Source: Patescibacteria group bacterium (lineage in GTDB: Bacteria; Patescibacteriota; Minisyncoccia; Phycocordibacterales; Phycocordibacteraceae). From it: a stretch of 64,000 nt of DNA. The stretch's first letter is position 1, and every line of letters starts with the position of its first letter. The position numbers and the translations under genes are program-made. Shown piece after piece: positions 3,801-47,532 of this stretch. The notes under the pieces were generated by a model that saw only the letters and a program-made list of their open reading frames with translations, was not told the DNA's origin and did no database searches. The stretch lies in NCBI GenBank assembly GCA_019752595.1, contig JAIELV010000001.1:184486-248485 (forward strand), written 5' to 3'.

Positions 3801-5171
3801 CTAGAGATATTTCAACGGATCAAGGTACGCATCCGTTGGCGCCACAGGAATTGTGGCGTTTGCGCAATTTGTTTTTGCTTTCACGTCGCCGTAACGCACA
3901 ACTTTAACCGCATCCGATACATAGAGCGTAAAGTGCAGGTGCGGGCCCGTAGCGTAGCCTGTTTTACCTGAATAGCCGATTAAACCTCCGCGTGATACTG
4001 CCTCCCCCTTTGTAACGCTAATTACCGAAAGGTGGGCGTAGAGCGTGGAGAGGCCGTTTGTATGCTTTACCAGAACCCATTTACCGTACGAATAGCAGCC
4101 TTTATACGCGTCTGTGTTCCCTGTCGCAGTTACTTCACCAGGGAGGGCAGAAACTATTTTAGTGCCCGTTGGAGTGCCGAAATCGATGCCGTTGTGGTCT
4201 TTTCCGTTATATGCGCCTGATTGTGCGAACGAAGTGTTGCCATAATACTGAGTAATGCAGTAGTTGTTTTTAAACGTACTGTAGCGGTCTTTGCACTTCG
4301 CCATAAACGCAGAGTCGACAGGGAAACTCAACACGCCACTCCCCGCTTTCGGAATTGATGTAGGGTCAAGGTTAAATTGAAGCGCAGCTTCGTAATCACC
4401 TAACTGTTTTTCAAACTCCAGTTTCGCAGCCTGTTTTTCGGCAAGAAGAGTTTGGAACTCTGATTCTTTGTTTTTTGTATCTGCTAGAAGGTTTGCCTGT
4501 TCTTTGCGGTTTTGATCCAATACTAATTTTTGATTCGCCAGTTCGCGTTTAAGGTTTTTCAGTTGATTTTGTTTCTTTTGGGTTTCGGTTAAATCGAGCG
4601 TGAGTTCTTGTTTCGTATCAAGAAGGTTATCAATCTGCGCGCGAAGTTTTTCTTGTACGATTCGCTCGCGGTCTGCAGTAGTCCACGCGTTCTCTAAACC
4701 GTTTGCCGTCAGCAAGTGTTCAACAAGTGTTGTTTCGCCAATTTTATAAATATTTTGAAATGCAAGATTAACCGCTTCCTTCCCAGCGTTGATACTTTTT
4801 TCTTTTTGACTGATTTCACCACCAAGTTCTTTAATCTCGAGGCTTGCTTCCGTAATCCTGTTTTCAGTAACAGAAATATCCGTACCGATTTTTTTGCGAG
4901 AAACGTCAATGCGCTTCACCTCGCTCTCTAATGTTGATTTTGCCGAGCCGATAACCACCAACTGGCGCTCATATTCGGCAATTTCTTTTTCAAGCTGAGC
5001 TATTTTTGCGTTTTGAGTGGCAATCCTTGCTGCTATTTCTTCAGCTGTTTCGGCTAGAGTATTTGTAGGTAATGTAAAAAGTGCACCCAGAACGAGGAGT
5101 GCAACTATACAAAGAGGCGCAATCCTATGAAAGCGAATCGATAGCACGGTTGATGCGCTTTTCAGTTTCAT
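3801..5171 (-). CDS. M23-family peptidoglycan metalloendopeptidase with N-terminal signal/TM and a long coiled coil (EnvC-like)
   Basis: C-terminal GIDFG...PHLHF (HxH) M23 motif. N-terminal hydrophobic segment, then a Gln/Glu/Lys-rich coiled coil. Confidence 0.8.
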   Translation of the reverse strand: MKLKSASTVLSIRFHRIAPLCIVALLVLGALFTLPTNTLAETAEEIAARIATQNAKIAQLEKEIAEYERQLVVIGSAKSTLESEVKRIDVSRKKIGTDISVTENRITEASLEIKELGGEISQKEKSINAGKEAVNLAFQNIYKIGETTLVEHLLTANGLENAWTTADRERIVQEKLRAQIDNLLDTKQELTLDLTETQKKQNQLKNLKRELANQKLVLDQNRKEQANLLADTKNKESEFQTLLAEKQAAKLEFEKQLGDYEAALQFNLDPTSIPKAGSGVLSFPVDSAFMAKCKDRYSTFKNNYCITQYYGNTSFAQSGAYNGKDHNGIDFGTPTGTKIVSALPGEVTATGNTDAYKGCYSYGKWVLVKHTNGLSTLYAHLSVISVTKGEAVSRGGLIGYSGKTGYATGPHLHFTLYVSDAVKVVRYGDVKAKTNCANATIPVAPTDAYLDPLKYL

Positions 5172-15549: not shown

Positions 15550-16971
15550 TTACTGTTTTTTCTTGAGTTCCAACCCCAGCTCATTGAGCTGTTTTTTTGT
15601 GAGTTCCTTTGGAGCTTTCATTACGGATGTCTGGCCACCTCGTGTCATCGGAAACGCCTGTACTTCACGAAGTTGAGTTTCGTTTGCCAAAGTCATTGCA
15701 ATTCTTTCCACTCCGATAGCAATACCACCGTGCGGAGGAGCGCCGTATTTGAATGCCTCGAGCATGTGCCCCACTTTTTCTTGCGTCTCATCATCGGTGT
15801 TGCCCATTACTCGGTATGTGGCTTTCAGAATTTCAGGGTCATGCGCGCGGATAGAACCGCCACCAGTTTCAAAGCCGTTGCAGACCAAGTCGTACTGCGT
15901 GGTCAAAATGTCGCCGATGTTCTCCCCTTTCAGCAAAGATTCCACATGTTCAGGAATCGGCATGGAGAACGGGTTGTGCGTAAACGTCCACTCCCCCTTC
16001 GCCTGCCCTGAGTTTGTCGAAGGGTCTGTTTTCTCGAAGAATGGGAAATTCACGACCCATGCAAACGCAAGAACGCCGTTTGCTTTGTCTTCCTCTGTTC
16101 GCATGTCGAATTTGTCTGCGCCGTATTTTGCCATAGCGTCCTTGTAACTGATTCTTGGGAAGGGCTTTTCTTTTATCTTGTAGCCGAGCTTTTCTACGGA
16201 TTGCGTTATCATCGCTTCCACGGTGCTCATGACGTCCTCCATTTCAACGAACGACATTTCCAAGTCTATCTGCGTGTGTTCAAAGCCACGGTCTGCACGA
16301 AGGTCTTCGTCGCGGATAGCGCGAGCAATCTGGAAGTAGCGTTCCATGCCGCCGACCATCAAGAGTTGTTTGTACTGCTGGGGCGATTGTGGAAGTGCGT
16401 AAAACTTTCCTGGGTTCAGGCGTGACGGCACTACGAAGTCGCGAGAGCCTTCGGGAGTAGATTCAGTAAGAAGTGGAGTTTCAATTTCGACGAAACCCTC
16501 TTTGAAAAGAAATTCACGTGCGTTCTGGATAAAGGCAGAACGCGTGCGGATGTTTTTTTGCATTCTTTCCGAGCGGAGGTCGAGGTAGCGGTACTTGAGG
16601 CGAGCGTCTTCGTCGATTCCTGATGTATCAGCCGAGATATCAAACGGCGGAGTTTCAGATTTTGAAATGAGAGTGATTTTTGAAATTTGCATCTCAATGT
16701 CTCCGTTCTGCATGTTCGGGTTTACGTTTTTCTCTGGGCGTTTTACCACGGTGCCTGTAAATGCCACCACCCATTCAGGGCGTATTTCTTTGAGTTCAAA
16801 CGCGCCCTCCACCTGTACGTCCTGCATCGCAACACACTGAATCTTCCCGCTTCTGTCGCGAAGGTTCAGGAATGACATTTTTGACTGATGGCGGACTACG
16901 TCTACCCAGCCTTTAATAGTCACCGACTCGTCAATGTGGTTTTTCAGGTCTCCTATGAGGGTTCTAGTCAT
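15550..16971 (-). CDS. aspS: aspartate--tRNA ligase, short archaeal/eukaryal-type (no GAD insertion)
   Basis: N-terminal OB fold, class II motifs FEHTQIDLEMSF and GGGSIRAHDPE, 473 aa. Confidence 0.8.
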   Translation of the reverse strand: MTRTLIGDLKNHIDESVTIKGWVDVVRHQSKMSFLNLRDRSGKIQCVAMQDVQVEGAFELKEIRPEWVVAFTGTVVKRPEKNVNPNMQNGDIEMQISKITLISKSETPPFDISADTSGIDEDARLKYRYLDLRSERMQKNIRTRSAFIQNAREFLFKEGFVEIETPLLTESTPEGSRDFVVPSRLNPGKFYALPQSPQQYKQLLMVGGMERYFQIARAIRDEDLRADRGFEHTQIDLEMSFVEMEDVMSTVEAMITQSVEKLGYKIKEKPFPRISYKDAMAKYGADKFDMRTEEDKANGVLAFAWVVNFPFFEKTDPSTNSGQAKGEWTFTHNPFSMPIPEHVESLLKGENIGDILTTQYDLVCNGFETGGGSIRAHDPEILKATYRVMGNTDDETQEKVGHMLEAFKYGAPPHGGIAIGVERIAMTLANETQLREVQAFPMTRGGQTSVMKAPKELTKKQLNELGLELKKKQ

Positions 16972-17078
16972 AAAAAATACTTTATCACGAATACATTTCT
17001 TCTTCCTCTACATTCCTCTACAGATTCCTGGTAGCGCTACATGACTAACTCAATAAATATATATGAGTAAAACTCTAT

Positions 17079-17112
17079 GAATAACTGATATGATATATCA
17101 TATCAGTTATTC
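17079..17112. promoter_or_regulatory. 34-nt perfect palindrome GAATAACTGATATGATATATCATATCAGTTATTC (putative operator)
   Basis: Self-complementary. Lies between the TrpR-like gene's 3' end and the aspS 5' region. Confidence 0.5.
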
Positions 17113-17135
17113 ACGAAGCTTGACCCCTGACTTCT

Positions 17136-17534
17136 TTAGGGGAAAAGGAGGAAATGGAGAGGATATTTTTTCTTTAATCCTTTGTATAGGTTTTTTGCAC
17201 TCAAAGGGTCTTTGCGTGAAGCAAATTCTTTCTCCAAGCCTTGAATAGCGTTTTCATATCCTGGCATTTGGTCTGATAGCCACTTCTGTACGCGCGCAAT
17301 GGTGTCAAAACCTACACCCAATCTTTTGCTTATCTCGCGCGTTTTCTCGCCCTGAATCAAAAGGCGGGCAATGATAATTCTGCGTCCGAGCATCACGCGC
17401 TCGCTTTCTGTAAGCAGGTCGCGCAGGAAGTTCTTGACCGCGCCTTTCCCCTGCACCGAAGCGGCAGCCGTGTACAAACTGTCGAGAAGCACCATTCGCT
17501 CCTTCTCTCCTAAATCTTTCAGTTTTACTTTCAT
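17136..17534 (-). CDS. TrpR-like YerC/YecD-family DNA-binding protein (paralog 1)
   Basis: FLRDLLTESERVMLGRRIIIARLLIQGEKTREISKRLGV...RVQKWL matches the Trp_repressor/YerC family. Start set at MKVKL by alignment with paralog 2. Confidence 0.65.
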   Translation of the reverse strand: MKVKLKDLGEKERMVLLDSLYTAAASVQGKGAVKNFLRDLLTESERVMLGRRIIIARLLIQGEKTREISKRLGVGFDTIARVQKWLSDQMPGYENAIQGLEKEFASRKDPLSAKNLYKGLKKKYPLHFLLFP

Positions 17535-17578
17535 AAAAAGTGAATATACATAATATGAACCAATATACATACAGCTAC

Positions 17579-17606
17579 TAACTGATATGATATATCATAT
17601 CAGTTA
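17579..17606. promoter_or_regulatory. 28-nt perfect palindrome TAACTGATATGATATATCATATCAGTTA (same core as 17079..17112)
   Basis: In the upstream region of the TrpR-like gene, between it and the trpS stop. Confidence 0.5.
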
Positions 17607-17703
17607 TTGAGTGTATAAGAACCATCTAAGAGGTGGAGGTGGGGATTCTGAAAATAGACCTAAAAATAAATCCAAAAATAAATCTAAGAAAGATTATAGC
17701 GGG

Positions 17704-18657
17704 TTATATAGTTAGGCCGATTTTCTCGCGCACTACTTTCATTTTGGCTTCGGCCTGCGAGCGAGCTTTTTCGTTACCTTCTTTCAGGATTGCGTCTACC
17801 GCAGGCCTATCTGATGCATAACGCTCACGGCGTTCGCGCATGGGAGCGATAAATGATTCTAAATCTTCAATGAGCGCTTCTTTCAGGTCTTTGTACTTCC
17901 CTTTCTTTTCTTCATACAGTGGTGCGAGTTCGGCTTCCGATTTCAGAAGGCGGTGGATGGAATATACATTTGCGGGGCGTTCACCCGATGAATCCGTAAC
18001 GATTCTCATCACGGCTTTTGATATTTCGTCTTTCGTGCCGAAAAGCGGAATGGTGTTGCCGTAACTCTTGCTCATTTTTTGGCCGTCGGTTCCCGGAACG
18101 GTGGCGACCTCTTCAAGGAAAATTCCTTTTGGGTCTTTGAATGTTTCTCCGAATGCGTTGTTGAATTTCGATGCCGCTTCGCGCGCGTATTCAATGTGCT
18201 GAGCTTGGTCTTTGCCGACGGGTACTAAATCAGTGTCGTAAAGAAGAATGTCTGCGGCCATCAGCATCGGGTAGTTGAAAAGCCCTGCGTTTGCCTCCAT
18301 GCCTTTCGCCACTTTGTCTTTATATGAATGCGCCTGCTGCAAGAAAGGAACGGTAACCAAACATTCAAAAATCCATGCAAGTTCTGTGTGTTGAGAAACT
18401 TCCGATTGGCGGAAGATAACCGCTTCTTTCGGGTCGAGGCCCGCGCCTAGGTAATCCAAAACGACGTCCAAAGTGTTCTTCTTCAGCTCCGCAGGGTTCT
18501 TGAGGCTCGTCAGGGCGTGGTAATCGGCCACCATCAGCATGCTCTCAAATTCGCTGTGACGGTCTATAAAAGGCTTCAGAGCCCCGAAATAGTTCCCGAT
18601 ATGCAGCTGCCCCGAGGGCTGTAGCCCGGTCAGAAGCCTTTTTTTGCCATTTGACAT
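17704..18657 (-). CDS. trpS: tryptophan--tRNA ligase
   Basis: GLQPSGQLHIGNYFGA (HIGH) and KMSKSYGN (KMSKS). Start set at MSNGKKRLL. Confidence 0.85.
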   Translation of the reverse strand: MSNGKKRLLTGLQPSGQLHIGNYFGALKPFIDRHSEFESMLMVADYHALTSLKNPAELKKNTLDVVLDYLGAGLDPKEAVIFRQSEVSQHTELAWIFECLVTVPFLQQAHSYKDKVAKGMEANAGLFNYPMLMAADILLYDTDLVPVGKDQAQHIEYAREAASKFNNAFGETFKDPKGIFLEEVATVPGTDGQKMSKSYGNTIPLFGTKDEISKAVMRIVTDSSGERPANVYSIHRLLKSEAELAPLYEEKKGKYKDLKEALIEDLESFIAPMRERRERYASDRPAVDAILKEGNEKARSQAEAKMKVVREKIGLTI

Positions 18658-18676
18658 GCCCCAATAATAGCAGAAA

Positions 18677-19582
18677 ATGAAGAGAATTATGGACGAAACA
18701 AATCCTGCCCACGGAATTGATCTCAAGAGTCTCTCGAAGTCTCAACTTCGCCAATTACTTGATGGCGCACTTCAAAAAATTCAGGAGATAAATGAAAAAT
18801 ATCCCAATGTAACTGCGCAATATTCAGAAATAGAGAGAGCTCATGGAGCGTTGTTCAGTGCAGAAAATCCTCTTGCATTGAAAGCAGAGACTGCTACAGA
18901 AGATATAGAAAAATACCGCAGTCAACTTGATTCGGAAATCAAGCCAGAGATTCAAACAACAAGAAATGAGTTGACTGGACTCTTGTCTAGTACGACACTT
19001 GCGACACTCGCAAATGCATATGAACAGGCGAAAACAGAGTACTCACGTGTTCCGCTCAGGAAATACGAAGGCAAGATTCTATCCCACATCTTCACTTTCT
19101 TTTACAATACCGTGTGGCGGAATCTTGATTTCTTTTTCAGCTACGCCTTTTTCGTGGCTCCGCTACTCGCGATTTGTTTCATATTCCTTTACGAGGACAC
19201 AGCAAAGGTCGTGCTGGACACATTGACTACAGCCAACTCAGTACCAACCGCACTCGAGTTAATTTATATAAAGACAATTATTTCGTTGCCTTTGATTTGG
19301 ATTGCTTGGTACGGGCAAAGAAATATCTCTCAAAGAAAGAGAATGTTTGAGGAATACAATCACAAATTACGCGTCGTGCAGATGTACACCATGTTCACGT
19401 CAGATGACACTTCGTATCGATTCTCCGATAATCAGAATAGTCTTAAATTAGAGACTCTTCTTATCGACACTATTGGTAATAACGCAAGTAAAGTTTTTGG
19501 AATGGACGAAACTATTTTGGATAAAATCAAAGAAATTATCCGTGCGAATAAGGGTGGCGCGGAAGAGAAAGACGGTGAGTAG
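18677..19582 (+). CDS. hypothetical membrane protein (301 aa)
   Basis: Long ORF with hydrophobic segments in the C-terminal half. Confidence 0.4.
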   Translation: MKRIMDETNPAHGIDLKSLSKSQLRQLLDGALQKIQEINEKYPNVTAQYSEIERAHGALFSAENPLALKAETATEDIEKYRSQLDSEIKPEIQTTRNELTGLLSSTTLATLANAYEQAKTEYSRVPLRKYEGKILSHIFTFFYNTVWRNLDFFFSYAFFVAPLLAICFIFLYEDTAKVVLDTLTTANSVPTALELIYIKTIISLPLIWIAWYGQRNISQRKRMFEEYNHKLRVVQMYTMFTSDDTSYRFSDNQNSLKLETLLIDTIGNNASKVFGMDETILDKIKEIIRANKGGAEEKDGE

Positions 19583-34890: not shown

Positions 34891-35073
34891 AGGGATTCTA
34901 TTTTACAAAACGTGTACAGTGGTCGTCAAAATTATCAAGATAACGCTTCGGTCACAACTCTCGTCATGCCGTCGCACTCCTCGGTCGCGACCCCGCCTCG
35001 TCCGTTTTCTGAAACAGAAAACATGACTCTGGCCGTCGAAACTGCTATCTAAAAACAAGCAGTTGTTTTTAGA

Positions 35074-35466
35074 TTAGCGTTTCGACCAAGATGGTCTCTT
35101 GCGGGCCTTGAGGAGCCCTGGTTTCTTGCGTTCAACAGCTCTTGGATCGCGCTTCAAGTACCCCGCAGCTTTCAATACACCTCTTTTCGAGGCGTCATGA
35201 GCAAGAATTGCGCGGGCAATGCCGTGCCTTAATGCGTCAGATTGACCTGAAATACCACCTCCCGAAAGGAGGGCGGTGATAGTGAATTTGTCTTCAGATT
35301 CTTTGAGTGGCAAAAGCGCGTTGTCGGCCTGCTCTTTGATTGGGAAGAAATCTGCAATGGTTTTACCGTTTACAGTGATCGACTGCTTTGCAGAAGGTGT
35401 AAGGCGGACGCGTGCTTTTGCGGTTTTTCTTCGGCCAATAGCTTCAATGTAGCGTGCTGTACTCAT
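35074..35466 (-). CDS. rpsI: 30S ribosomal protein S9
   Basis: GGGISGQSDALRHGIARAL...C-terminal KARKRPSWSKR. Confidence 0.9.
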   Translation of the reverse strand: MSTARYIEAIGRRKTAKARVRLTPSAKQSITVNGKTIADFFPIKEQADNALLPLKESEDKFTITALLSGGGISGQSDALRHGIARAILAHDASKRGVLKAAGYLKRDPRAVERKKPGLLKARKRPSWSKR

Positions 35467-44721: not shown

Positions 44722-46004
44722 ACGGCTTTCAAATATCCAACAGTGACTAAATCTTTTCCTAGGTACTTCTTTGCCGCCTCTGCAACCTCTGTGAGAGTTA
44801 CCTGCTGAAGTTTATGTTGAAACGAATAGGTGTCCTTCCAGTCACCGCGTGCAATTGACTCATTCATTGCTGACAGCATTCCTGCAACGGAAGAAAGTGA
44901 GTAAAGTCTGTCAGCAATTTTAAAGTGAACAGCACGCTCAAGGTCAGCTTCCTTTAGCTCACCCTTTGCAACAGATTCAACGATTTCAAAAATAACCTGC
45001 TCAACTTTTTCATGCGGAACGTTTTCAGAAAGCGCGACATATATTTCAAATAACGAGGGGTCTTTAAACCGTGGGAAATCGGCATGAAGCTCAGTCGCGA
45101 GCCCAGTATCGATAAGTGCACGATACAAAAGGCTTGATTTACCTTTTGAAAGCACTGCGGAAAGCGCTGAAACGGCATAGGCATCATCTGCAAGCCCAGC
45201 GGGTGCTTTGAAACACATCATGAGCGCGTTCACGGCGCCCTGGCGCTTCAACTCAAACCTACGCTCGCCTTTTTGTTCTGGCTCAACATGAAATTCTGGT
45301 TCAATGATTTCTCCTTTCGCGAATGAACCGAAAGCTTCTTCTGCAAGAAGTAATGCCGATTCAGTGTCTGTGTCACCGACAATCGTCACCGTAGCGTTAT
45401 TTGGCCAATAGAATGCGTCATAAAACTTTTTTAACTTCTCTACCGTTATGCCTTCAATGTCTTCCTTTGTTCCAATTGTTGGTATGCGGTACGGGTGAAC
45501 AGAAAAAGCTTGATACCACGCCTGTTTACCCAAGCGTTGCATCGGATCGTTCTCGCCTGATTCGTATTCGTTTCTAACTACGGTCATTTCAGATGCCAAA
45601 TCCTCAGCGCGCAGAAGTGCATTTCTCATTCTGTCGGCCTCAATGTGCAAAGCATCTTCTTTTAGAGAGACAGGAGAAATCCAGTAGTAGTTTGTTCTAT
45701 CACACCAGGTGGTTGCGTTTCCTTGCGAACCCTTTTTCTCTAAGAGCGACCAAATACCATTCCCCTTTTTCGGGTCGTATTTTTTTGAACCCTTAAACAT
45801 CAGATGTTCAAGAATATGCGTCGCACCAGTGTGGCCTGGGAGTTCGTGACGGCTACCCACATGATACGTGACCATAGTCCCAATGACGGGGAGTTCTCTT
45901 TTTTCGGCAATCAATAGTTTGAGACCGTTCTTTCTGTGTATGTACGACGAGAAACCGTGCGCCTCCTCAACAAGTTCAAAATCATGTGTTTTCCCCTTCG
46001 GCAT
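44718..46004 (-). CDS. M16-family zinc metallopeptidase (pitrilysin-like)
   Basis: Inverted zinc motif HILEHLMFKGS (HxxEH). Confidence 0.8.
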   Translation of the reverse strand: MPKGKTHDFELVEEAHGFSSYIHRKNGLKLLIAEKRELPVIGTMVTYHVGSRHELPGHTGATHILEHLMFKGSKKYDPKKGNGIWSLLEKKGSQGNATTWCDRTNYYWISPVSLKEDALHIEADRMRNALLRAEDLASEMTVVRNEYESGENDPMQRLGKQAWYQAFSVHPYRIPTIGTKEDIEGITVEKLKKFYDAFYWPNNATVTIVGDTDTESALLLAEEAFGSFAKGEIIEPEFHVEPEQKGERRFELKRQGAVNALMMCFKAPAGLADDAYAVSALSAVLSKGKSSLLYRALIDTGLATELHADFPRFKDPSLFEIYVALSENVPHEKVEQVIFEIVESVAKGELKEADLERAVHFKIADRLYSLSSVAGMLSAMNESIARGDWKDTYSFQHKLQQVTLTEVAEAAKKYLGKDLVTVGYLKAV

Positions 46005-46028: not shown

Positions 46029-46697
46029 CTAAAGCCAATCTATCGGCTTTTTACCCTGCTCTGTGAGGTACGTATTCGTTTGGCTAAATGGCTTTGAACC
46101 GAAAAAGCCGTTATACGCGGAAAACGGCGACGGGTGCGGAGATTCAATAACGAAATGCTTTGTACGGTCTATGTGGGCGCCCTTTGCTTTTGCGTAATTA
46201 CCCCATAGTATAAAAACTAAGTGTTCGCGCTCTTCTGAAAGTTTTTTTATAACTACATCAGTAAATTCTTCCCAGCCTTTTTCCTGATGGGAACCTGGCA
46301 TATTTCCCCGCACGGTCAATGTTGCATTCAAAAGTAACACTCCCTGCGTTGCCCAACGGGACAAATCTCCGCTTTTGTTTTTTAGTGGCGCTTTGAGGTC
46401 TGACTCTATTTCTTTAAAGATATTCTGCAGAGATGGTGGAAGCGGAACATTTTGGCCGACCGCGAAGCAAAGCCCGTTTGCCTGCCCTTTACCGTGATAC
46501 GGATCCTGCCCGAGAATCACCACACTCACTTTTTCAAACGGACACAAATCAAACGCACGAAAAATTACTTTCGGTGCTGGATAGACAATCTGCGTGTTGT
46601 ACTCACTCCTAACGAAGTTAGTCAATTTCGCAAAATACGGTTTTTCAAACTCCGCTTCAAGTTCCTTTTTCCACGACGACTCGATAACTACATTCAT
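46029..46697 (-). CDS. ung: uracil-DNA glycosylase, family 1
   Basis: VVILGQDPYHGKGQANGLCF and HPSP motifs. Confidence 0.9.
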   Translation of the reverse strand: MNVVIESSWKKELEAEFEKPYFAKLTNFVRSEYNTQIVYPAPKVIFRAFDLCPFEKVSVVILGQDPYHGKGQANGLCFAVGQNVPLPPSLQNIFKEIESDLKAPLKNKSGDLSRWATQGVLLLNATLTVRGNMPGSHQEKGWEEFTDVVIKKLSEEREHLVFILWGNYAKAKGAHIDRTKHFVIESPHPSPFSAYNGFFGSKPFSQTNTYLTEQGKKPIDWL

Positions 46698-46741
46698 ACC
46701 AGGTATTCTACCCGCATTAGATTGAAAATCCGCAATTCAAA

Positions 46742-46761
46742 GATTACCATATATGTTAATC
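46742..46761. promoter_or_regulatory. 20-nt near-palindrome GATTACCATATATGTTAATC (1 mismatch; putative operator) in the ung/TrpR-like divergent region
   Basis: Seen in sequence. Related to the perfect copy at 47214..47231. Confidence 0.45.
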
Positions 46762-46769
46762 TTTGATCT

Positions 46770-47183
46770 ATGAAGAAAAAGATTGTTGACTTAACCGAAC
46801 CAGAAAGGATAAAGACTCTTGATCTTCTGTACACAGCTGCTGCTTCAATTCGCGGACGCGACGCAATGAAACTGTTTCTCCGTGACCTTCTCACGGAAAG
46901 CGAACGCGTTATGTTGGGAAGACGCATCTGGGTAGCCAGGCTTCTTATGCAAGGACAGACAACTGAAGATATAGCGCGTGATTTAAAAATGAGTCTCAGA
47001 ACTGTGTATCGTGTGCAGTACTGGTTAAAAGATCAATTCCCTGGCTATGAAACTACACTAAAAGAGATGGAAAAAGTTATGGATACCCGAGCAAAACTTC
47101 ACGAGGCCAAGGCAGAGCCTTTCTCATACGCAGCGCTGAAAAAACGTTTTCCTCTCCACTCTCCACTTTCTACTTTTCCCTGA
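46770..47183 (+). CDS. TrpR-like YerC/YecD-family DNA-binding protein (paralog 2)
   Basis: LLYTAAASIRGRDAMKLFLRDLLTESERVMLGRRIWVARLL...RVQYWL. Shares the C-terminal tail KKRFPLH..L..FP with paralog 1. Confidence 0.65.
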   Translation: MKKKIVDLTEPERIKTLDLLYTAAASIRGRDAMKLFLRDLLTESERVMLGRRIWVARLLMQGQTTEDIARDLKMSLRTVYRVQYWLKDQFPGYETTLKEMEKVMDTRAKLHEAKAEPFSYAALKKRFPLHSPLSTFP

Positions 47184-47213
47184 ACCAAAGCCGAAAAAGA
47201 AATTTATAGATTG

Positions 47214-47231
47214 ATTACCATATATGGTAAT
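47214..47231. promoter_or_regulatory. 18-nt perfect palindrome ATTACCATATATGGTAAT followed by a T-run (operator and/or weak terminator)
   Basis: Immediately downstream of the TrpR-like paralog 2 stop. Confidence 0.45.
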
Positions 47232-47265: not shown

Positions 47266-47532
47266 TTAGAGTGCGCCTTCTTTTTTCAAAAGCCTTTCTT
47301 TTTCCCCGCGCAAACCGTTATAACCTCCTAAACCGCGAACACCAACCACTCTGTGACAAGGAATACTTTTGTCCTTATTTGAGCGCATGATTGCTCCCAC
47401 AGCGCGTGCGGCTAACGGATGCCCTGCTTTTGCTGCCACCGCTTTGTAGGTCATCGTTTTGCCTTTGGGGATACTTTTTACAACGAGCACTACCTTAGTT
47501 CTAAAATCTTTCTTTGAAAAATCAGAAATCAT
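47266..47532 (-). CDS. methylated-DNA--protein-cysteine methyltransferase, C-terminal (active-site/DNA-binding) domain only
   Basis: LAARAVGAIMRSN...IPCHRVVG...GGY.GL...RLLKKEG matches the Ogt/Ada C-domain, including PCHR. Confidence 0.75.
   Translation of the reverse strand: MISDFSKKDFRTKVVLVVKSIPKGKTMTYKAVAAKAGHPLAARAVGAIMRSNKDKSIPCHRVVGVRGLGGYNGLRGEKERLLKKEGAL

Follow-up and report, generated by a model that had tools for sequence, protein, structure and literature searches.

The window analysed here is a 64,000-nt stretch of contig JAIELV010000001.1 (GenBank assembly GCA_019752595.1, positions 184,486 to 248,485) from a Patescibacteria group bacterium. It carries a gene for a predicted Trp-repressor-fold helix-turn-helix (HTH) protein, designated paralog 1, with one copy of a long palindrome on either side. 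These palindromes are probably the operators of the protein encoded between them, which would repress its own gene, with the 3' site as a fixed part of the module. What is new, as judged from comparison of the sequences, is a Patescibacteria TrpR subfamily in which the gene is bracketed by its own operators, the specificity code can be read, and the site has spread in some genomes. The literature searched contained no paper that ties TrpR or PF01371 to Patescibacteria or describes the bracket.

The palindromes and the regulator

The two palindromes share a 28-nt core, TAACTGATATGATATATCATATCAGTTA, which occurs exactly twice in the window, at 17082-17109 and 17579-17606. No third copy was present in the 64 kb even with up to three mismatches, a search of the whole window with the 22-mer at up to five mismatches returned the same two sites only, and 100 shuffles gave an expectation of 0 copies of the core. 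Chance or a generic repeat within the window was ruled out by these searches and shuffles. On the coding strand, the upstream copy lies 98 nt past the trpS stop and 44 nt before the regulator ATG (58 nt from its centre). Its 20-bp core consists of the half-sites TGATATGATA and TATCATATCA, and both its position and its core agree with the upstream site found throughout the family. The 3' copy starts 22 nt past the regulator stop and ends 106 nt ahead of the aspS ATG. The initial annotation of this DNA had described two palindromes with a common core flanking a regulator gene between trpS and aspS, and this was borne out, these being the sole copies in the window. The length of 28 nt given for one copy was right, and that of 34 nt given for the other is in fact 36 nt (Table 1).

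Paralog 1 belongs to the Pfam family PF01371 (Trp_repressor), which it matches with 55.5 bits over residues 17-99 (gathering threshold 27), and Trp_repressor and generic HTH models were its only domain matches in Pfam and NCBIfam. The AlphaFold2 model is all-helical, with seven helices and a predicted local distance difference test score (pLDDT) of 83, lower in the C-terminal extension. The top 29 Foldseek matches of this model in the PDB were TrpR or TrpR-like, with probabilities of 0.97-1.00 and target-normalised template modelling (TM) scores of 0.52-0.74. The closest were 3frw, 3g1c (HisR) and 3kor, then E. coli TrpR, and a profile search of PDB sequences gave the identical order. Paralog 1 is, on its domain matches and predicted structure, a Trp-repressor-fold HTH protein, as had been proposed. 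The narrower label of YerC/YecD family could not be kept, as NCBIfam TIGR02531 (YerC/YecD, HisR) gave 27.8 bits with a cut-off of 42.2 and the protein has a 33-aa, family-specific C-terminal extension ending in KKKYPLHFLLFP. The score for TIGR01321 (TrpR), 31.3 bits, was also below its cut-off of 67.25. Alignment of the start with homologues shortened the protein from the 133 aa given at first to 132 aa.

The HTH residues of paralog 1 are R66, F76, D77, T78, A80 and R81. The equivalents of the TrpR ligand-pocket residues T44, R54 and R84 are T42, R52 and R81; T42 and R52 are invariant in the family and R81 is occasionally K, and the position of TrpR S88 is occupied by an invariant Trp (W85). 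Family members are 132-150 aa long. Their core is strongly conserved, and their extension forms two helices and terminates in K-K-K-Y-P-L-H-F-L-L-F-P, within which the YPLHFLLFP tail is invariant.

A sequence identical to paralog 1 is on record from an 831-kb contig of a Patescibacteria MAG (metagenome-assembled genome). The search for relatives returned more than 1,100, of which the best-scoring 120 share 57-84% identity with paralog 1 and, where annotated at all, are named as Trp family regulators of Parcubacteria or Paceibacterota. In the best database matches, which bear Parcubacteria or Paceibacterota names, the identity is 57-68%; a Saccharibacteria member is about 54% identical. A profile search of the full library gave 494 clusters (50% identity) at an E-value of 1e-10 or lower, part of which may be HisR-type proteins outside this subfamily. 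No relatives were found in viral contigs. A phage or mobile-element origin was rejected on this result and on the finding that the dispersed sites described below are alike in the palindrome only. In three predicted proteins (P0020, P0097 and P0106), the open reading frame (ORF) was called from an ATG within the palindrome (ATGATATATCAT, read as M-I-Y-H), which yields a spurious "MIYH..." N-terminus, and the same in-palindrome ATG begins a spurious small ORF across the site in another locus (L098, 5338-5640).

Bracketing in homologous loci

The comparative set comprised 88 homologous genes in 86 loci from Patescibacteria, including 80 further metagenomic loci fetched for the purpose of comparison. 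A palindrome centred on ATA/TAT, where the slash marks the dyad, was found within 250 nt upstream of 80 of the 88 genes, within 150 nt past the stop of 73, and on both sides of 72. The remaining genes mostly had a palindrome with another centre or flanking sequence was missing. When the search was left unconstrained, the best palindrome at most loci was centred on ATA/TAT. In most cases the upstream dyad is 15-60 nt ahead of the ATG, and it is never closer than 15 nt; the downstream dyad mostly falls 2-60 nt past the stop. Counts were also made, in 741 kb of sequence, of perfect palindromes of this kind with arms of at least 8 nt. Nearly all (160 of 172) lay within 300 nt of a TrpR-like gene, in neighbourhoods that make up 87 kb, and the other 655 kb held 12.

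Three unrelated contexts (obg/gatB, infA/rpmJ-rpsM and mreB/tgt) each have a palindrome just upstream of the gene and another 17-31 nt after its stop. Of 56 loci, 36 have a convergent gene after the regulator, and these also carry the 3' palindrome. The preferred reading is that the 3' site does not serve to control the gene that comes next. The Saccharibacteria member is also bracketed, as is a 33%-identical family member in the metagenome-assembled genome (MAG) Bin_17_1 (L126, 5476-5962), which lies between two identical copies of the site formed by CTATATTGCGATA and TATCGCAATATAG. Those copies are unlike the TGATATGATA sites scattered through the same genome, which suggests that Bin_17_1 carries parallel systems of paralog and site. 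Judged from these loci, the operator-gene-operator module is a hallmark of a Patescibacteria-specific PF01371 subfamily.

Two of the loci have further features. In one (L031, 308-1173), two TrpR-like genes stand in tandem, the first of them frameshifted within the HTH, with palindromes before, between and after them. In the other (L002, 3700-4900), the bracketed module separates infA from rpmJ-rpsM, whose adjacency is highly conserved elsewhere in bacteria, and about 250 nt of structured-looking non-coding sequence (4480-4700) follows the 3' palindrome.

The operator and its co-variation with the protein

An operator matrix was derived from 72 non-redundant genes with their sites aligned on the dyad. 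It describes a 20-bp palindrome, T-[A/G]-n-T-[A/T]-[T/C]-[G/C]-A-T-A followed by its mirror image, with the consensus TACTATGATATATCATAGTA, and its information content reaches background beyond positions +-10/11. The site strings of the modules are TGATATGATATATCATATCA and ATTACCATATATGGTAAT. Within a genome, the upstream and downstream copies show at least 94% identity as far as position 9 and diverge further out, and between genomes the copies differ.

Residues 76, 66, 80 and 77 give the highest mutual information between columns of the protein alignment and positions in the operator. In a HMMER alignment of paralog 1 with E. coli TrpR, R66 corresponds to R69, F76 to I79, D77 to A80, T78 to T81, A80 to T83 and R81 to R84, and R69, I79, A80, T81, T83 and R84 are the six DNA-contact residues listed for TrpR (PMC9413887). 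The four variable contact residues (66, 76, 77 and 80) co-vary with the DNA; T78 is invariant, and R81 is the residue that is occasionally K. R66 and G at position -9 occurred together in 20 cases, R66 without G in none, G without R66 in 3, and neither in 48. For D77 and G at position -4, the corresponding numbers were 48, 3, 1 and 19. On a neighbour-joining tree built from the non-HTH columns, 9 of the 10-11 inferred changes in R66 and G-9 fell on the same branch, as did 7 of the 9-10 in D77 and G-4 (approximate counts), and none of the control positions had more than 5 shared-branch changes.

This co-variation is strong comparative evidence, by which the palindromes are almost certainly cognate operators of the encoded protein. 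Binding of a dimer to a palindrome of about 20 bp would fit both the position matrix and the co-variation. The initial annotation had read the palindromes as operators and proposed autoregulation; in the comparative data they behave as cognate sites, from which autoregulation follows most naturally.

A second module in the window

A tblastn search found a second TrpR-family gene in the window, paralog 2, which is also flanked by palindromes (Table 1). It scores 47.8 bits against Pfam Trp_repressor (threshold 27), and its motifs occur nowhere else in the window at up to five mismatches. Paralog 2 has E66 and R77 where paralog 1 has R66 and D77, and the operators differ to match: T-G...G-ATA for paralog 1 and G-A...C-ATA for paralog 2. 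Both paralogs obey the residue-base code. The co-variation, together with this pair of paralogs, points to a protein that recognises double-stranded DNA by its sequence and docks on it much as TrpR does. This genome appears to hold two such modules with different specificities.

The C-terminus of paralog 2 reads ...RFPLHSPLSTFP before the stop, and that of the family ...YPLHFLLFPxPK (window 47150-47212). Dropping one unit of a tandem 5-nt duplication, CTCCA CTCCA, restores RFPLHFLLFPEPKPKKKFID with the stop right at the 3' palindrome. Either the frameshift is real and the conserved tail is lost, or the assembly is in error here.

Table 1. Features of the two modules and their neighbours in the window
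Feature	Position	Strand or orientation	Description
Putative upstream (promoter-proximal) operator, paralog 1	17579..17606	.	Perfect 28-nt palindrome, dyad 17592/17593
TrpR-family regulator, paralog 1	17136..17534	-	132 aa plus stop; start set by homologue alignment
Putative 3' operator, paralog 1	17078..17113	.	Perfect 36-nt palindrome, arm 18, dyad 17095/17096
trpS (tryptophan-tRNA ligase)	17704..18660	-	Upstream neighbour, outside the conserved module
aspS (aspartate-tRNA ligase)	15550..16971	-	Short 473-aa form; co-directional downstream neighbour, outside the conserved module
Putative upstream operator, paralog 2	46737..46766	.	30-nt palindrome with one mispair, TCAAAGATTACCATA and TATGTTAATCTTTGA; ends 3 nt before the ATG
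TrpR-family regulator, paralog 2	46770..47183	+	137 aa, 54% identical to paralog 1; found by tblastn
Putative 3' operator, paralog 2	47214..47231	.	Perfect 18-nt palindrome, ATTACCATA and TATGGTAAT; 30 nt past the annotated stop
Uracil-DNA glycosylase gene	46029-46697	divergent	Beside paralog 2
Gene matching only the DNA-binding domain of O6-methylguanine methyltransferase	47266-47532	convergent	Beside paralog 2

Proposed mechanism

In the proposed mechanism, a symmetric dimer would read the 20-bp palindrome made of TGATATGATA and TATCATATCA with the docking geometry of E. coli TrpR. Arg66, the equivalent of TrpR Arg69, would contact the G at -9, and the start of the recognition helix (F76, D77 and A80, equivalent to TrpR I79, A80 and T83) would read positions -4 to -8. 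The upstream operator would lie at or over the promoter of the gene, so that the protein represses its own transcription. The second operator, directly after the stop, would be a fixed part of the module. A second dimer bound there may cooperate with the promoter-proximal dimer in a loop of about 0.45-0.5 kb, and the C-terminal extension peculiar to the family may mediate this. Alternatively, or in addition, the 3' site may work as a roadblock or an insulator, isolating the small gene from transcription around it.

The relation of the operator to the promoter is clearest in the ACTATGATA clade, where a TTGnnA hexamer stands 17 nt ahead of TATCAT, the right half of the dyad. In seven genes, the distance from the centre to the ATG is exactly 15 nt, and in none is it shorter. 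The TTGnnA spacing and this minimum indicate that the operator overlaps the -10 element, and an ATG 15 nt from the dyad implies that some transcripts are leaderless or nearly so. A family-wide -35 element at a fixed distance from the dyad was clear in the ACTATGATA clade only and weak overall. A canonical intrinsic terminator was also considered for the window palindromes and rejected: the terminator scan flagged neither of them, and the core stem is A+T-rich.

Several results weigh against the operator interpretation. First, no convincing -35 and -10 elements could be assigned around the upstream copy in the window, the dyad of which is 58 nt from the ATG. Secondly, helical phasing of the dyad-to-dyad distances was not found (Rayleigh R 0.08-0.24, p of at least 0.07). 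Third, the operator is invariant at its ATATAT centre and differs from lineage to lineage at positions -4 and -5, an unusual pattern for HTH operators; service as a -10 element may account for part of the conservation of the centre. Fourth, the tree used for co-variation is noisy, being a neighbour-joining tree of short proteins, and its event counts are approximate. Fifth, many sites are perfect palindromes far past 20 bp, with arms of up to 25 nt. Outside the core, pairing continues to an arm length of about 15 nt (upstream copies) or about 18 nt (downstream copies). The two copies in a genome have different outer sequences, and reading by the protein leaves this unexplained. The outer-arm pairing possibly reflects selection for extrusion or hairpin formation, or quasipalindrome correction by template switching, a known mutational process. 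Lastly, copies of the site in other genomes lie mostly at gene boundaries, in a distribution that resembles a 3'-end or repetitive extragenic palindrome (REP) pattern more than that of promoter operators.

Copies of the site in other genomes and alternative explanations

A scan with TGATATGATATATCATATCA, using one genome per species, returned 75 stretches, nearly all of them from MAGs of the candidate phyla radiation (CPR). Five single matches, labelled Clostridia, Nitrospirales, Proteobacteria, Lachnospiraceae and Vagococcus, look like chance, and one further single match came from a Candidatus Saganbacteria MAG. The exact 20-mer occurred 25 times in Paceibacterota bin.228, 12 times in a Saccharimonadales MAG, 8 times each in Bin_17_1 and LaPlata bin-2928, 7 times in a Kaiserbacteria MAG and 6 times in a Saccharibacteria MAG (CAYNOO). 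In each of these multi-copy genomes, the TrpR-like gene has just one or two of the sites beside it, and all four complete TrpR-like genes recovered from them encode R66 and D77. By rough gene calls, 30 of the dispersed sites lie between tandem genes, 13 between convergent genes, 4 between divergent genes and 19 inside called ORFs. The copies within one genome have in common the palindrome plus 3-8 extra arm bases and no more. Other single genes are bracketed by the site as well, for example at L118 and L120. No common function was seen among the genes beside dispersed sites when their translations were inspected by eye. They are diverse housekeeping genes, which from their translations we take to be pyrE, gatA, a sigma factor gene, and those for RNase III and PNPase, trmD, ruvC, ybeY and gdh, among others. 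In two CPR genomes (L099 near 3705 and L091 near 159), the 20-mer lies inside a called ORF and reads AIDMIYHINKLP just ahead of an apparent PILVGGTGF; we presume this ORF to be miaA from the motif alone.

The initial annotation had held that the operator proposal would fail if the palindrome occurred at many unrelated loci. The window contains no such copies, and some other CPR genomes do, with the identical 20-mer. These dispersed copies are compatible both with a global regulon that uses an extended site and with amplification in the manner of REPs. A broader and rather doubtful interpretation is that the proteins and palindromes form a genome-architecture system throughout Patescibacteria, rather than a local repressor that responds to a metabolite. 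The palindromes would then be protein-dependent boundaries, that is, roadblock terminators, insulators or loop anchors. They would always mark both ends of the regulator's own gene and, in some genomes, dozens of other transcription units. Such sites would amplify through intergenic DNA like REPs without a transposase, and re-coded paralogs would run parallel sets of sites.

It is unlikely that the palindromes are mainly a dispersed REP-like or boundary element (a hairpin, cruciform or terminator) spreading through intergenic DNA, with the regulator gene either as a "master" locus, like the genes for REP-associated tyrosine transposases (RAYTs), or merely as one location, and with a protein that may handle the elements instead of working as a conventional repressor. 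The copy numbers, with only one or two sites beside a TrpR-like gene, the gene-boundary contexts, the few shared arm bases, the neighbours without common function, the arms well past 20 bp and the other bracketed genes all favour such an element. However, the protein has no transposase or nuclease domain and its relatives are absent from viral contigs, and the lack of anything common beyond the palindrome means that there is no body of a miniature inverted-repeat transposable element (MITE). Co-variation of residues and bases at the TrpR contact positions argues for sequence-specific reading of double-stranded DNA. In addition, a T-run (at least 6 T in 8 bases) follows only 17% of the 3' copies family-wide, arm length does not depend on whether the 3' end of the neighbour faces the site, and the 3' copies show no G-U bias, with 38 G-T and 42 A-C mispairs. 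In most of the genomes sampled, the sites are nearly confined to the flanks of the gene.

A link to the neighbouring synthetases, as the initial annotation had suggested, now seems quite improbable. By that account, the regulator senses an amino acid or the state of aminoacylation, the 3' palindrome is the operator of aspS, and trpS upstream points to a circuit linked to tryptophan. It is true that aspS is co-directional, with its ATG 106 nt past the 3' palindrome, and that the conserved pocket equivalents T42, R52 and R81 would allow a small-molecule co-repressor. But the order trpS-regulator-aspS was seen in this window only, among 72 non-redundant homologous loci, and the neighbours elsewhere are unrelated. 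Control of aspS by the 3' copy, though conceivable in this genome, is not needed to explain that copy, which is kept family-wide, also ahead of the convergent genes at 36 of 56 loci. Furthermore, paralog 2 is bracketed between a uracil-DNA glycosylase gene and a convergent methyltransferase-domain gene. No T-box, small RNA or other known RNA element was matched in Rfam at gathering thresholds in the 64 kb; there was only local sub-threshold noise.

Finally, control at the level of RNA, in which the palindromes are transcribed as 5' and 3' mRNA hairpins, or base-pair between themselves, and are acted on by the protein or by RNases, is highly improbable: if transcribed, the upstream and 3' copies would fold stably (-18.9 kcal/mol, z -4.3, and -32.2 kcal/mol, z -10.1), the loop-forming centre is invariant with stems that vary with compensation, and sense-strand G-T mispairs at positions 11-18 slightly exceed A-C mispairs in upstream copies (57 vs 33), but the 3' copies are unbiased, stem positions -10 to -4 obey a position-specific matrix and track the HTH residues, no Rfam family matches, and where the centre is 15 nt from the ATG transcription is predicted to start within the right arm or past it, which would leave the hairpin untranscribed.

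Other features of the window and neighbouring genes

The AspRS encoded in the window (473 aa) matches 590-aa bacterial AspRS models in two stretches, and the large insertion domain of bacterial-type AspRS is apparently missing. The aspS leader contains a tandem 10-nt direct repeat at 17003-17022, 32-51 nt ahead of the aspS ATG, which reads TTCCTCTACA twice on the plus strand and TGTAGAGGAA twice on the coding strand. At one homologous locus (L065), the regulator follows a pair of trpS and another aminoacyl-tRNA synthetase gene, and the product of this second member is just 31% identical to the AspS of the window. Divergent from trpS, a 301-aa ORF on the plus strand (18677-19582) has predicted hydrophobic segments and atypical codon usage, and it has no Pfam match. 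A repeat finder also reported two other inverted repeats in the window, one at 44847-44937 (30-nt arms at 73%, 31-nt spacer) and one at 35035-35086 (24-nt arms at 83%, 4-nt spacer).

Comparison with known systems

One of the closest known systems is E. coli TrpR, which regulates its own gene and has the same fold and DNA-contact residues that align one to one with those of paralog 1. Its operator motif is TGTAcTnGTnnACnAgTACA (PMC9413887). TrpR likewise has a 20-bp palindromic operator, with T and G/A at positions -10 and -9, that overlaps its own promoter, and the pairing of Arg with G(-9) recurs here as co-variation. However, the putative operator of the window has an ATATAT centre, whereas that of TrpR has TTAA with CTAG half-sites. 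The window protein falls below the TIGR01321 cut-off and has the two-helix C-terminal extension with the YPLHFLLFP tail. Its module also has a second operator past the stop and involves no trp genes.

YerC of B. subtilis is the histidine repressor HisR, which binds 20-bp palindromes (PMC9413887). HisR is shorter than 100 aa, its operator is cacTTTAnnnnnnTAAAgtg, and its sites lie upstream of his and transporter genes; the consensus is lineage-specific and the hisR gene is often autoregulated (PMC9413887). By sequence and fold, proteins of this type provide the closest solved structures to the window protein (3frw, 3g1c and 3kor). In contrast, the consensus here is TACTATGATATATCATAGTA rather than cacTTTA-N6-TAAAgtg, the protein has 132 aa as opposed to fewer than about 100 aa, and no his genes lie near the sites found here. 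A conserved second operator right after the stop has been described for neither TrpR nor HisR.

Two similar operators around or within a regulated unit are also a feature of lambda cI, which lies between OR and OL, of gal (OE and OI) and of lac (O1 and O2), in which repressor genes and cooperating operators are found together. The likeness to these systems suggests autoregulation enhanced by looping. Unlike them, the pair in the window tightly brackets a single 0.4-kb gene, does so throughout the subfamily, and shows no helical phasing.

The RAYT genes, which encode HUH/Y1 (IS200/IS605-like) transposases, likewise lie between cognate short palindromes, the REPs. As with REPs, the palindromes here are lineage-specific, and the extra copies are mostly intergenic and depleted at divergent promoters. 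Unlike a RAYT, the protein is a TrpR-fold HTH protein without an HUH or Y1 catalytic domain, and the copies number from 2 to about 25 rather than hundreds, with essentially the flanking pair only in most of the genomes sampled.

Significance

Patescibacteria, or CPR bacteria, have tiny genomes with very few recognisable transcription factors, and to our knowledge almost nothing is known of how their transcription is regulated. The label "trp operon repressor" misleads for the proteins described here, and its correction would improve their annotation. The analysis yields a model of the operator, a two-position code (R66 with G-9 and D77 with G-4) and a natural control in the two paralogs, and the model and the code can be tested in vitro without culturing the organism. 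The second operator raises the question of looping versus roadblock or insulation in tightly packed genomes. Given the breadth of its relatives, the protein is a candidate for a core regulator of the CPR.

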